Source of the DNA: Candidatus Cloacimonadota bacterium
GTDB taxonomy: Bacteria; Cloacimonadota; Cloacimonadia; G963667145
NCBI GenBank assembly: GCA_963676515.1
Contig: OY781061.1
Span: 1-32,000 of the forward strand
DNA length: 32,000 bases
Reading direction: 5' to 3'
Shown here: positions 6,831-14,939 of the stretch, piece after piece
Layout: every line of letters begins with the position of its first letter
How positions within the stretch are numbered: the first letter of the stretch is position 1
Notes under the pieces: generated by a model
Database searches by the model: none
The model's input: the letters and a program-made list of their open reading frames with translations, nothing else
What the model was told of the DNA's origin: nothing
Made by a program: the position numbers and the translations under genes

Positions 6831-6834
<4 letters not shown>

Positions 6835-7415
6835 ATCATCGCCTTTTTTAAAATATTTTGGATAATCTCTACTGTTGTTTCGGTGGTGGTGTTTCCCATA
6901 TCCAAAACCAAATCGGCTACCTCTAAATACCAATCTAAGCGAGAATCGAAAAGCACTTTCATCTTGGCTACATCTTGCGAGAAGAGCGGTCTTTTCTTGT
7001 CGTTTTCCACCCTCTTGCAAGCTACTGCTGGCGGCAAATAAAGGAAGATGTTGTAGTAGTTCGCTTTTAGCTCTGAGCGTGCTTCTGCTATGGTGATTAC
7101 TCCGCCACCAGTAGCAAGGCAGATAGGCGTAGGCTCTTTAGCTATTTCTTTGAGCAAAGTTAGCTCCAGATTTCTGAATCTTGCTTCTCCAAAGTTTTTG
7201 AAGATATCGTAAATTTTGAGCATAGCCCTTTTTTCGACAAGGAAATCCAGATCAAGTGCTTGTCGCCCGAGAGCGTTGCAGATAGTCGTCTTGCCAGCAC
7301 CCATAAATCCCACAAGGCTAAGATGTTTTTTATTTGCGGGTAAAGAAACAAAAGGGGCGTTATCGCCCCCTCTGATTTTTAGTTTGTTAAATTTTTCGAG
7401 TTGTTTTTCGGTCAT
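6831..7415 (-). CDS. aroK: Shikimate kinase
   Basis: LVGFMGAGKTTICNALGRQALDLDFLVEKRA...FRNLE...ICLATGGGVI...RPLF. Region between Walker A and the D-x-D motif looks about 4 aa short versus E. coli AroK. Confidence 0.87.
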
Positions 7416-7416
7416 T

Positions 7417-8565
7417 CTATTTTACAGACTGTTTTAGTTTCTCCACCATATCTGTGGCTTCCCAAGGGAACTCTGCACGACCGAAGTGACCGTAAGCTGC
7501 AGTAGCAGCGTAAATAGGTCTTTTCAGATCGAGATGTTTTATTAGCTCAGCTGGTTTGAGAGGGAATATCTTTTTTACAGCTTCTACTATCTTTTCATCG
7601 GCGATGGAGCCAGTGCCGAAGGTGTCCACTAGCACAGAGACAGGGTCTGCCACTCCGATAGCGTATGCAAGCTGCACTTCGCATCTGTCCGCCAAGTCGG
7701 CTGCGACGATGTTTTTGGAGATGTATCTTGCCATGTAGGAGGCACTGCGGTCAACTTTGGATGGGTCTTTGCCGCTGAAGCATCCTCCACCGTGGCTACC
7801 TTTGCCTCCATAGGTGTCCACTATTATCTTGCGTCCAGTCAGACCTGTGTCGGCGTGTGGTCCGCCCAAGACAAATCTGCCTGTAGGGTTGATGTGGATT
7901 TTTGTGTCACTGTCAATTAAATTTTTGCCGATAACTGGCTGGATAATTTTTGCTAAGATATCTTTGCGGATTTGTTCCAGACTCACTTCTGGATCGTGCT
8001 GAGTGGAGACAACCACTGCTTCCACGCGGACGGGCTTGTCTTCTTTATATTCCACGGTTACTTGCGATTTGCCGTCGGGGCGTAAGTAGCTGAGCTCTCC
8101 AGATTTGCGAACCTCAGAAAGTTTTTTGGTCAATTTGTGGCTGAGCATTATCGGTAAGGGCATCAGCTCGGGAGTCTCTTTGCAGGCGTAACCGAACATC
8201 ATTCCTTGGTCGCCAGCTCCTTGCTCATGCTTGGTGTACTCGTCCACACCCATAGCGATGTCTCGTGACTGTTTGTCTATGGTGGTCATTACGGCACAAG
8301 TTCTGGCATCTATTCCGTAGTCGGCATTGGTGTAGCCAATCTTCCTCAGGGTGTCGCGTACCACAGTAGAGATGTCCACATAGCAACTGGTGGTGATTTC
8401 TCCTCCCACAAGTGCCATCCCTGTAGTCACGAAAGTTTCGCAGGCGACGCGTGCTTCAGAGTCTTGGGTTAAGATTGCATCAAGAATTGAATCTGAGATT
8501 TGGTCACAAATCTTATCAGGGTGACCTTCGGTTACAGATTCGCTGGTGAAAAAATAGTTTGTCAT
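7417..8565 (-). CDS. metK: S-adenosylmethionine synthetase
   Basis: [49 protein letters not shown]...[20 protein letters not shown]-type motifs (here [27 protein letters not shown]). Confidence 0.98.
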
Positions 8566-8572
8566 CTAAAAT

Positions 8573-8628
8573 CTCCTTTTTAGCTTTTTTTTGTTGTTGC
8601 GGTGCAATATGGATCAAATCCCCGCAAC
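8573..8628 (-). promoter_or_regulatory. SAM-II-like riboswitch in the metK 5' leader
   Basis: Reverse strand GTTGCGGGGATTTGATCCATATTGCACCGCAACAACAAAAAAAAGCTAAAAAGGAG: P1 GUUGCGG/CCGCAAC, loop GAUUU..CC-AUAUUGCA, 3' AGCUAAAAAGG, matching the SAM-II aptamer as I remember it. Loop UCC can pair with SD GGA. Confidence 0.85.
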
Positions 8629-8643
8629 TCTTTACTTAACAAT

Positions 8644-8663
8644 CAATTATCTCGTGATAATTG
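8644..8663 (-). promoter_or_regulatory. Perfect 8-bp hairpin/dyad CAATTATC-N4-GATAATTG early in the metK leader
   Basis: CAATTATC (8644-8651) TCGT GATAATTG (8656-8663), between the predicted promoter (8705-8677) and the riboswitch. Confidence 0.5.
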
Positions 8664-8676
8664 CTCTTATTTTCCT

Positions 8677-8705
8677 CAAAAAAAGATTTCGTTAATTTGA
8701 GTCAA
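8677..8705 (-). promoter_or_regulatory. Putative metK promoter TTG(ACT)-N18-TTTTTTTG
   Basis: Reverse strand TTGACTCAAATTAACGAAATCTTTTTTTG; same spacing as other predicted promoters in the window. Confidence 0.4.
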
Positions 8706-10315
8706 TATTTTTTTCTGCTTTTTCTTTTAGGTCGATCACTAAATTGTCCTCTGTTGGACAAAGGTGTAACTTTGATAGGCAGATGAGCAAAACTTTTTGT
8801 ATTTAGTTTTTCGATCACCTTTTGCACCACTTTTCTATCAACCTCTAGTTCAGTTTTTTTTTCGTAAATATCTATTCGTCCTATCTCTACGCTTCTTTGT
8901 ACGCTTTTGATAAGATTAAAAAGGTCAGCTTTTTCAAAATCGTCATTTTTCCCGAGGTTGATTTTGATTTTGCTAAATCTTACTTTGGGAGCAGCGTTGA
9001 GGTCGGGTAATTTATGGTAATGACTCCAGAGTCTACTTAGTTGCATACCGACGAAAGATCTGATGAGCTCTTCTTTGGAAAAACGAGAAAACTCGAGGTA
9101 GGCAGCTTGGGCGAACTGGTCTAGTTGCTCGTCTACTTGGAAATCTTCTAAAGTTTTGCTCAATTCCATGAGTCTATTTTGACAAACTTCATCGCCAGAG
9201 GGTATCCGCTGAAACTCGATGGGAAGCCCTAACATCTTTTGGATAGTATCTATTTTTCTTTTCTCTTTTTGTCCGACGATGGAGACGCATATTCCTTTCT
9301 TGCCTGCTCTGCCAGTCCGCCCACTACGATGGACATATATTTCTGTGTCGTCTGGTAGTGCGTAATTGATGATGTGTGTGAGGTCTTTGACATCTATTCC
9401 ACGAGCGGCAACATCTGTAGCGATGAGCAATTTTAGATTTTTACTGCGAAATTTTTTCATCACTAACTCTCGCTGAGGCTGAGACATATCTCCATTGAAA
9501 GCTTCTACACGGTAGCCCAGCTTTTGCAATGCCATGCAGATATCTACTGTGTCTCGTTTGGTTCTGCAAAAAACAATGCCGTAAATGCCCGCGAAGTTGT
9601 CTAAGATTCTGGAGAGTACAGCGGTTTTTTGTTTGCCAGAGCAAAGATGGTAGTAATGTTGTACATTCATAACACCTTGATTTTGCTTGCCGATAGTTAC
9701 CTTGAGTGGATTTTTCAGATATTTGTTTGATGCTAGGCGTTCTACTTGTTTGTTCATCGTAGCAGAAAAAAGAAGCACCCTTTTTTCAGGATTGGTGAAA
9801 GACAAAATCTCTTCTAACTCTTCTTGGAAACCCATGTCTAGCATTTGGTCAGCTTCGTCTAGCACCAAGCATTTGATGCTGGAGAGGTTGAGTCTACGGC
9901 GATTGAGGAAATCCAGAGTCCTGCCTGGAGTACCTACGACCACTGCTGGATGCGTAGCTAGTGCATCTATTTGTTTTTTTATGTCGCCTCCACCGAAAAG
10001 GCTAATAACCTTAAATCCGCGGGAGTTTATTGAATAATCTTTTAGCTCTTGGCAAATTTGTTGCACTAACTCACGGGTGGGAGCTAAGATTAAGTATTGT
10101 ACTTTTTTTTCTTTGGGGTCAAAAGACTGAATCATCGGCAGACCGAAAGTGGCGGTTTTGCCAGAGCCTGTCTGGGACAGGACTATAAGGTGTTGGTCTG
10201 ATTCCAAGACCATCGGTATCACTTTAGACTGTACTTCGGTGGGTGTGATAAACCCCAACTTGTTTATAGTGGATAAAATCTCTTGATTTAATCCTAATTG
10301 ATCAAAATTCGGCAC
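8702..10315 (-). CDS. ATP-dependent DEAD-box RNA helicase, CsdA/DbpA-type with C-terminal DbpA-like RNA-binding domain
   Basis: LSQTGSGKTATFGLPM, PTRELVQQ, VVGTPGR, VLDEADQMLDMG, LFSATM, ARGIDV, HRSGRTGRAG; C-term RSVEIGRIDIYEKKTELEVDRKVVQKVIEKLN. GTG start. Confidence 0.94.
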   Translation of the reverse strand: MPNFDQLGLNQEILSTINKLGFITPTEVQSKVIPMVLESDQHLIVLSQTGSGKTATFGLPMIQSFDPKEKKVQYLILAPTRELVQQICQELKDYSINSRGFKVISLFGGGDIKKQIDALATHPAVVVGTPGRTLDFLNRRRLNLSSIKCLVLDEADQMLDMGFQEELEEILSFTNPEKRVLLFSATMNKQVERLASNKYLKNPLKVTIGKQNQGVMNVQHYYHLCSGKQKTAVLSRILDNFAGIYGIVFCRTKRDTVDICMALQKLGYRVEAFNGDMSQPQRELVMKKFRSKNLKLLIATDVAARGIDVKDLTHIINYALPDDTEIYVHRSGRTGRAGKKGICVSIVGQKEKRKIDTIQKMLGLPIEFQRIPSGDEVCQNRLMELSKTLEDFQVDEQLDQFAQAAYLEFSRFSKEELIRSFVGMQLSRLWSHYHKLPDLNAAPKVRFSKIKINLGKNDDFEKADLFNLIKSVQRSVEIGRIDIYEKKTELEVDRKVVQKVIEKLNTKSFAHLPIKVTPLSNRGQFSDRPKRKSRKKY

Positions 10316-14778: not shown

Positions 14779-14853
14779 GTCCCGTTCGTCTAGTGGCTAG
14801 GACTCCAGATTCTCATTCTGGCAACAGGAGTTCAATTCTCCTACGGGATACCA
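14779..14853 (+). tRNA. tRNA-Glu (anticodon CTC), CCA encoded
   Basis: GTCCCGT...ACGGGAT acceptor (one G-U), anticodon arm CCAGA-TTCTCAT-TCTGG, T arm AGGAG-TTCAATT-CTCCT, terminal ACCA. Confidence 0.95.
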
Positions 14854-14863
14854 TTTATATCGT

Positions 14864-14939
14864 GCTTCTGTAGCTCAGTTGGTAGAGCAACTGACTCTTA
14901 ATCAGTGGGTCTAGGGTTCGAATCCCTACGGGAGCACCA
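14864..14939 (+). tRNA. tRNA-Lys (anticodon CTT), CCA encoded
   Basis: D arm GCTCAGTTGGTAGAGC, anticodon arm ACTGA-CTCTTAA-TCAGT, T arm with GTTCGAATC, terminal ACCA. Confidence 0.96.

Follow-up and report, generated by a model that had tools for sequence, protein, structure and literature searches.

The riboswitch classes SAM-II and SAM-V have cores that superimpose at 0.37 Å (PMC6061858). The crystallised SAM-II RNA has 52 nt, UCGCGCUGAUUUAACCGUAUUGCAAGCGCGUGAUAAAUGUAGCUAAAAAGGG (PMC8494917). Most SAM-II riboswitches are accompanied by terminators (PMC2258182; PMC6061858), and the class is already reported in alpha-, beta- and gamma-Proteobacteria and Bacteroidetes (PMC2258182), with long-loop variants reported in 'Bacteroidetes, marine' (PMC2864571). 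In SAM-V, whose structure was described by Huang and Lilley, the third strand (G5-G11) occupies the P2 major groove, and its U8, U9 and U10 are members of the triples of the ligand site. U47 bulges out of P2, its pairing partners being the SAM adenine and U8, the triple U20:A48.U9 faces the sulfonium, a further triple is formed by U19:A49.U10, and A50, placed opposite A18, holds the amino-acid end of SAM. The linker residues A40-A42 establish A-minor contacts with P1, and the P2a helix has 2 bp with the Shine-Dalgarno (SD) inside (PMC6061858). A further class, SAM/SAH (RF01727), precedes metK in Rhodobacterales and, as it is described in PMC7367207, does not distinguish SAM from SAH.

The window considered here, i.e. 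the whole 32,000-nucleotide stretch of DNA, carries a metK gene on the minus strand. An earlier sequence-only reading of this DNA proposed that the metK leader RNA is a SAM-II-like riboswitch, and the leader that it quoted is the exact minus strand 8628..8573 (56 bases, GUUGCGGGGAUUUGAUCCAUAUUGCACCGCAACAACAAAAAAAAGCUAAAAAGGAG), with the SD AAGGAG at the 3' end. The predicted components of the leader and the genes around it are the following:

8702-8704, minus strand: stop codon of the DEAD-box/DbpA helicase gene located upstream of the leader
8622..8628, minus strand: 5' strand of P1, GUUGCGG, with full pairing to 8596-8602
8615..8621, minus strand: L1, the putative third strand of the triplex, GGAUUUG, equivalent of G5-G11 of SAM-V (GCAUUUG)
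8611..8614, minus strand: turn and 5' strand of P2a, A-UCC, of which U8613, C8612 and C8611 pair with the SD
8604..8610, minus strand: descending strand of P2b, AUAUUGC, mapped onto SAM-V and matching the metX SAM-II construct
8596..8602, minus strand: 3' strand of P1, CCGCAAC, complementary to 8622-8628
Between the P1 strands, minus strand: the loop GGAUUUGAUCCAUAUUGCA
8585..8595, minus strand: L3 linker AACAAAAAAAA, 11 nt, without a P3 hairpin
8577..8584, minus strand: ascending strand of P2b, GCUAAAAA, with the bulged U8582; 100% identity across six genomes
8584-8573, minus strand: the tail, GCUAAAAAGGAG
8573..8578, minus strand: SD AAGGAG, with GGA as the 3' strand of P2a, 7 nt upstream of the AUG
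8565-8563, minus strand: AUG start codon of the 382-aa metK ORF
7417..8565, minus strand: metK (SAM synthetase, 382 aa), with the Pfam S-AdoMet_synt N, M and C domains (E = 7e-44 to 6e-68)
6831..7415, minus strand: aroK (shikimate kinase), with the Pfam SKI domain, beginning 1 nt past the metK stop

The gene behind the leader is indeed a SAM synthetase, as the sequence-only reading had it, since the 382-aa ORF contains the three S-AdoMet synthetase Pfam domains. The aroK and metK genes are probably co-transcribed and also lie next to each other in relatives; an effect of the switch on aroK through this co-transcription is speculation. The remaining genes of the window are housekeeping ones (Obg, DprA, RseP, Hsp33, GroEL, Ddl, oxaloacetate decarboxylase, QueA and TruA). 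Two neighbouring tRNA genes (14779-14850 and 14864-14936, plus strand) are placed between a LysM-protein gene and groEL.

The nearest named homologues of MetK and GroEL belong to Cloacimonadota, with about 70-74% identity. On the strength of these homologues the host is assigned to a deep, small-genome (~1.55 Mb) Cloacimonadota-affiliated lineage and not to an alphaproteobacterium, which agrees with the non-alphaproteobacterial neighbourhood noticed at the outset. The lineage is represented by about seven contigs of 1.54-1.59 Mb, of which the one with the MetK of the window has 1.58 Mb; the names of some records end in 'c', which may stand for circular. It is a barely annotated small-genome sister group. 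The Bacteroidetes that host RF01726 members belong to the same FCB superphylum as Cloacimonadota. When one genome per species is considered, the best MetK is 73% identical (a Cloacimonadota MAG), the motif occurs in 0 of 80 loci, and the non-Firmicutes loci of this set contain no SAM riboswitch; such a scan is of no use for covariation. The aptamer is likewise absent, by regular expression and by the covariance model R1 introduced below, from four Cloacimonadota-type metK leaders (L001, L033, L210 and L211), which are short, and from the L070 metK leader.

The element was mapped onto SAM-V through the RF01826 consensus. Within the window, the two strands of the predicted pseudoknot P2b/P2a show perfect complementarity in the correct register, with one bulged U. 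P2b would be formed by C8604:G8584, G8605:C8583, U8606:A8581, U8607:A8580 and U8609:A8578, with A8608 facing A8579; the SAM-V equivalents from G8605:C8583 onwards are G21:C46, U20:A48, U19:A49, A18/A50 and U17:A51. The lower P2b has 2 bp in the window and 3 bp in two of its close relatives (L083/L085), and one lower-P2 pair differs from SAM-V by a compensating change, U:A to C:G. P2a would have 3 bp (C8611:G8576, C8612:G8575 and U8613:A8574), in which the loop UCC pairs with the GGA of the SD. The predicted H-type pseudoknot thus places P2a over the metK SD, AAGGAG, as the sequence-only reading had suggested.

The nucleotides that in the solved structures contact the ligand or build the triplex are all present at the expected positions (8621-8615, 8609-8605 and 8584-8577). 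The equivalents of U8, U9, U10, A18, U19, U20, G21, C46, U47, A48, A49 and A50 are unchanged in the window and in its close relatives. U8582 is the equivalent of U47, the pairing partner of the SAM adenine in SAM-V; A8581 corresponds to A48, in the U:A.U triple facing the sulfonium; and A8579 corresponds to A50, the binder of the SAM amino-acid end. The L3 linker is A-rich, as A-minor contacts with P1 require (A40-A42 of SAM-V).

Among the described riboswitches, the metX SAM-II RNA of the Sargasso Sea metagenome (RF00521) has several features that are also predicted for the window, namely an H-type pseudoknot with P1, the GAUUU(G) third strand, the UAUUGC strand paired with GC-U-AAA including the bulged U, an A-rich L3 of 11 nt without P3, and a short CC/GG P2a that overlaps the ribosome-binding site. 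The resemblance to the 52-nt construct is close in the loop core and in the tail GCUAAAAAGG. The blocks that the sequence-only reading regarded as shared with this construct (GAUUU, CC-n-UAUUGCA and GCUAAAAAGG) are real in the alignment, and the construct had been quoted nearly correctly, with one A missing in comparison with the sequence in PMC8494917. P1 was said to be changed and still fully paired, and this is the case (GUUGCGG, 8628-8622; CCGCAAC, 8602-8596). The window P1 has 7 bp of a sequence unrelated to that of the metX RNA, whose own P1 is also fully paired, and one spacer G precedes GAUUUG. The typical SAM-II members differ further from the window. Their lower P2b has 4 bp (UUGCAG/CUGC), compared with 2 bp in the window, and they contain a stable, GC-rich P2a of about 5 bp followed by an intrinsic terminator, whereas the P2a of the window has 3 bp, lies in the SD and is followed by no terminator. 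The window also differs from RF00521 members in its Cloacimonadota-affiliated host and in its gene, which is metK and not metX, metA or metZ.

On the leader, no Rfam family scores higher than the long-loop family RF01726 (Bacteroidetes and marine, Weinberg 2010), which has members directly before metK. In this family 3 nt separate P1 from GAUUUG, the mid-loop (GGCUG) is shorter and lacks the CC-n-UAUUGC spacing, the tail ends in GCUAAAgCAG, and long insertions are frequent, whereas the window has a 1-nt spacer and no insertion. SAM-V (RF01826; 'Candidatus Pelagibacter ubique' metY/bhmT; PDB 6FZ0) resembles the element nucleotide for nucleotide in the ligand pocket, and also in its translational layout, where AAAAAGGAG stands at the 3' end and the SD is part of a short, bistable P2a. 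On the other hand, the linker of SAM-V contains a P3 hairpin, and its P1 and its lower P2 (UUGUGC/GCAC) have 4 bp each; none of these traits exists in the window. The SAM/SAH class is an H-type pseudoknot that occludes a metK SD, as is predicted for the window, but its core sequence differs from that of the window. This class was considered and rejected, as RF01727 gives no match on the leader at E <= 10. By its predicted architecture the element is a SAM-II riboswitch of the minority translational type, like the crystallised metX RNA; the lack of P3 decides this classification.

At the Rfam gathering thresholds, only the two tRNAs are detected in the whole window. In a permissive scan of the leader the top three families are all of the SAM-II type and cover the same site at full model length, with E = 0.0015-0.011, values that apply to the 261-nt search and would approach 1 for the whole window. 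The three scores lie below the gathering scores: RF01726 'SAM-II long loop' reaches 27.9 bits (gathering 44), RF01826 SAM-V 27.7 bits (gathering 41) and RF00521 SAM_alpha 20.9 bits with E = 0.0096 (gathering 36). The last of these is the search by which the sequence-only reading wished to be judged, and it went against it. Nevertheless, P1 and the predicted pseudoknot are conserved in the metK leaders of relatives and P1 covaries, and for this reason the low RF00521 score does not refute a SAM-II-like reading. The score deficit is due to peripheral traits, namely the longer P1, a register shift, the 2-bp lower P2 and the lack of P3. The core pattern GATTTG-N(2-10)-ATTGCA-N(10-40)-GCTAAAAAGG has a single match in the window and no match in any of 100 shuffles; the core match is not due to chance.

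The covariance model R1 was trained on 39 metagenome aptamers with the lineage of the window left out. It finds one significant site in the 32-kb window, 8563-8632, at 57.3 bits (runner-up 9.5), in an alignment in which the window P1 is mis-registered. The model also scores the divergent metK leaders L089, L212 and L213 at 27-29 bits, though these would fail the search pattern. Both the metagenome set and the model were picked by the core pattern of the window itself and, consequently, the conservation of the blocks in that set is partly circular.

Six close genomes (L081-L086; contigs of 1.54-1.59 Mb) encode a MetK 87-92% identical to that of the window and retain the gene order helicase-metK-aroK. 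Among them, the 33-nt block that comprises P1, its loop and the complementary P1 strand is 97.4% identical and the 12-nt tail with the SD is 100% identical, whereas the fourfold-degenerate sites of metK are 45% identical and the upstream leader 56%. The aptamer is, to judge from this contrast, under strong purifying selection. Only two aptamer positions vary in the six genomes, both of which are also variable across the wider family, and GGAUUUG (8621-8615) shows no variation. The linker drifts in length (11-23 nt in the six genomes and 8-23 nt over all relatives) and is always unstructured. P1 is lengthened to 8-9 bp in L085/L083. P2a has 4-5 bp in the six genomes and 2 bp in L088/L089/L212, and the SD forms its 3' strand in every relative, 9-12 nt from the AUG.

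More divergent metK leaders (MetK identity 72-80%) keep the core, while their P1 stems are different yet complementary. In L088 (MetK 80%) the unit is placed downstream of an EF-G-like gene and P1 is GCGG/CCGC; in L089/L213 (MetK 74%) it follows an SBP gene, with P1 AAGAGG/CCUCUU in L089; and in L212 (MetK 72%) it also follows an SBP gene, with P1 AGACGG/UCGUCU. The aptamer-metK unit is therefore found in three distinct gene neighbourhoods, two of which lack the helicase. In the lineage alignment three P1 pairs have changes on both sides. The formal count for the lineage gives 77.7% paired and a covariation of 0.169, compared with 0.086 in shuffled (0 of 500) and at most 0.082 in slid alignments. 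As P1 is invariant in the six close genomes, this covariation rests on the three divergent leaders; the alignment is small, and MAFFT partly mis-registers two divergent rows (L089/L212). The P1 register differs between the subgroups, whose lower P2 has 2-4 bp, and for this reason the explicit bookkeeping and a partner-swap test were added.

The pseudoknot helices behave differently from P1. P2b shows zero variation among relatives and is thus silent for or against pairing, whereas the two strands of P2a match each other in every relative, with covariation at one pair in the wider family. At about -4 kcal/mol, the bare P2 duplex is weak, as is expected of a ligand-dependent helix. The pseudoknot-free fold of the leader is the P1 hairpin, and its z-score of only -1.65 is unremarkable, being ordinary for a pseudoknot RNA.

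The wider family was collected from metagenomes with a pattern that fixes only GAUUUG, AUUGCA and GCUAAAAAGG, and more than 120 matches were listed. The ORFs downstream of the matches listed are metH-like in at least 45 cases, metY-like (O-acetylhomoserine sulfhydrylase-like) in at least 31 and MetK in at least three, and some are small unknown ORFs. Four groups are recognised among the matches listed. One is formed by classic RF00521 members (36-60 bits), another by compact 38-nt copies directly 5' of full-scoring SAM-V, a third by RF01726 members (57.3 bits) immediately 5' of a Bacteroidetes-type metK (L119, L148 and L171), and the last by 51-nt aptamers with a P3-like hairpin. The third group, in which full-scoring aptamers already stand directly before metK, indicates that the sequence-only reading overstated the novelty of an association with this gene. 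SAM-II, which it described as mostly reported in alphaproteobacteria, was already known from other groups, including Bacteroidetes (PMC2258182, PMC2864571).

Many of the matches listed, including some with good P1 stems and a methionine-gene context, reach no gathering score. A sub-threshold score is thus normal for real members outside the seed lineages. The P1 sequence is extremely variable in this set and yet complementary, since on average a 5' strand forms 4.1 bp with its own partner and 2.5 bp with a swapped one. Across the 39 metagenome members, all six P1 pairs have two-sided changes (6/6), and the covariation is 0.251, against 0.114 in shuffled (0 of 500) and at most 0.113 in slid alignments. 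In P2a the CC/GG pairs are constant and the third pair covaries (UA 20, AU 4, GC 3, UG 1).

The compact 38-nt SAM-II copies (L090:1573-1610 and L103:737-774, both on the plus strand; L098, L108, L132 and about 60 similar loci) have a P1 of 3-4 bp and a core identical to that of the window, GAUUUGAUCCAUAUUGCA, and stand 5' of SAM-V before metH-like or metY-like genes. These upstream copies have no Rfam match at gathering level; the tandem arrangement of SAM-II and SAM-V is already known (PMC9481103). The 51-nt group (L139:1077-1127, plus strand; also L101, L122, L162, L164, L168, L195 and L207) is built of P1 GGGU/ACCC, a 3-bp linker hairpin and GGCUAAAAAGGAG, with the AUG 6-8 nt further on. 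Its scores all lie under the Rfam gathering level (for SAM-V, 28.9 bits where 41 are required), and the ORFs behind it (81, 155 and 221 aa) match no Pfam or PHROG family.

It is highly probable that the metK leader is an H-type pseudoknot aptamer of the SAM-II/SAM-V superfamily that works as a SAM-dependent translational OFF switch. The fold and the gene logic find comparative support in the identity of the contact positions, the covariation of P1 and of one P2a pair, the purifying selection and the gene association. The triplex, SAM binding, the discrimination against SAH and the translational OFF logic are transferred from the solved SAM-II/SAM-V structures. In the proposed mechanism, P1 (7 bp) would close a 19-nt loop, whose 3' half (UCC-AUAUUGC) would give P2b and P2a by pairing with the tail GC-U-AAAAAGGA. 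The 5' half, GGAUUUG, would then occupy the major groove of P2 as the third strand, and the A-rich linker would run along the minor groove of P1. By analogy with SAM-V, the ligand would slot in between the triples: U8582 would take the adenine of SAM, the U:A.U triple would face its sulfonium, and A8579 would hold its amino-acid end. Binding would lock the weak 3-bp P2a (CCU/GGA) and bury the SD AAGGAG. With the SD buried when SAM is plentiful, the translation of SAM synthetase would be shut off, a negative feedback.

The same fold might serve a changed ligand or logic, in which case the leader would be a SAM-II derivative that senses SAH, another SAM-related metabolite or a polyamine. A precedent exists in the SAM-I variants before metK that bind spermidine and not SAM (PMC10853860); the element also lies under all three Rfam gathering scores, and in the distant L089 and L212 the U17-equivalent is changed and the A-run is shorter. 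However, the changes of the spermidine variants sit in the former SAM pocket, whereas the pocket nucleotides of the window are all unchanged, the Rfam deficit stems from peripheral features, and control of metK by SAM is the feedback to be expected. This reading is accordingly very improbable. A genuine SAM aptamer whose main output is transcription, through a Rho-dependent or non-canonical terminator, or the stability of the metK-aroK mRNA, in place of SD occlusion, is a little less remote and still improbable. Terminators accompany most SAM-II members (PMC2258182; PMC6061858), and the leader could alternatively fold a small hairpin (CUAAAA/UUUUAG) whose loop contains the SD. But no terminator-like stem or U-run exists in 8400-8900, nor in the 7 nt that separate the SD from the AUG, and the SD lies in P2a of every relative, which is the layout of SAM-V and of the translational metX SAM-II. 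The alternative hairpin amounts to only -2.3 kcal/mol and is absent in L082, L088, L089 and L212; with its marginal energy and its absence from several relatives, it was not adopted as an 'ON' state.

That the leader is no riboswitch at all, and shows a chance likeness in an A/U-rich intergenic region or a terminator or stabiliser of the DEAD-box helicase gene, is the least probable of these explanations and is strongly disfavoured. The sub-threshold Rfam scores, the modest z-score of the P1 hairpin and the low G+C content of the region would fit it. Against it stand the lack of the core pattern in all 100 shuffles, the conservation of 97-100% compared with 45% at synonymous sites, the compensatory changes in P1 and the lack of a U-run behind the hairpin; moreover, the element accompanies metK in three different upstream contexts, of which two lack the helicase. 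Judged by its sequence and relatives, the leader is with high probability a genuine SAM sensor, a switch of the established SAM-II/SAM-V kind.

As such, it extends a known class, by a divergent member, to a new host lineage and is unsurprising to a specialist; a full-text literature search for Cloacimonadota together with SAM riboswitches returned no relevant report. It adds a predicted riboswitch-controlled metK to a poorly known small-genome lineage affiliated to Cloacimonadota. The biology is the expected feedback, in which SAM represses its own synthetase through a known fold, and raises no new question. For annotation, the three curated Rfam models miss real aptamers of the SAM-II/SAM-V type (the window type, the compact tandem copies and the 51-nt group with P3), which makes a case for a merged or re-seeded SAM-II/SAM-V model. 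A tentative and rather doubtful proposal is that the lineage of the window, L088 and L089/L212/L213 represent a distinct uncatalogued subtype between SAM-II and SAM-V, native to the Cloacimonadota-related lineage. This subtype would combine a long P1 with a lower P2 of 2 bp, would lack P3 and would have the SD inside P2a. If it were true, and together with the other sub-threshold groups, SAM-II and SAM-V would be one broad continuum across the FCB group, substantially under-annotated by the current models.

In a more radical version, the L089/L212 branch, with its distal pocket altered, could have a shifted specificity. In L089 and L212 the U17-equivalent is replaced and the tail is one A shorter. 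The tails of L089:2437-2505, L212:1436-1505 and L213:1437-1505 have four A's in place of five (ACUAAAAGGAG or GCUAAAAGGAG), and a pattern that allows the L089/L212 tail is CUAAAAGGAG. With A or G as the U17-equivalent and the shorter A-run, the internal loop that separates P2b from P2a turns asymmetric (3 by 2). The distal binding site of the L089/L212/L213 sub-branch may therefore differ and, as far as these sequences indicate, the distal part of the pocket is not strictly retained in all relatives.

Some further features of the surroundings of the leader deserve mention. No sigma-70-like promoter is detected in 8400-8900. The conserved TTGACT at the start of the leader was considered as a -35 box and discarded, as it overlaps the helicase stop codon and has no -10 partner. 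The U-rich tract GAAAUCUUUUUUUGAG (window 8675-8690, minus strand) forms about 13 bp with the aptamer tail and the SD in the MFE fold of the whole leader. As an anti-SD element it was rejected, because this long-range pairing is not conserved among relatives, where the complementary AAAUCU part is missing; it is probably a coincidence of an A-run with a U-run. The stretch that separates the helicase stop from the aptamer contains a perfect hairpin or inverted repeat of 8 bp, CAAUUAUC-ACGA-GAUAAUUG (window 8644-8663, minus strand), with no U-run 3' of its stem. The hairpin is partly retained in L081 (GGUUAUC...GAUAAUC), is unrecognisable in the other relatives, and might stabilise the 3' end of the helicase mRNA or serve as a palindrome to which a protein binds.
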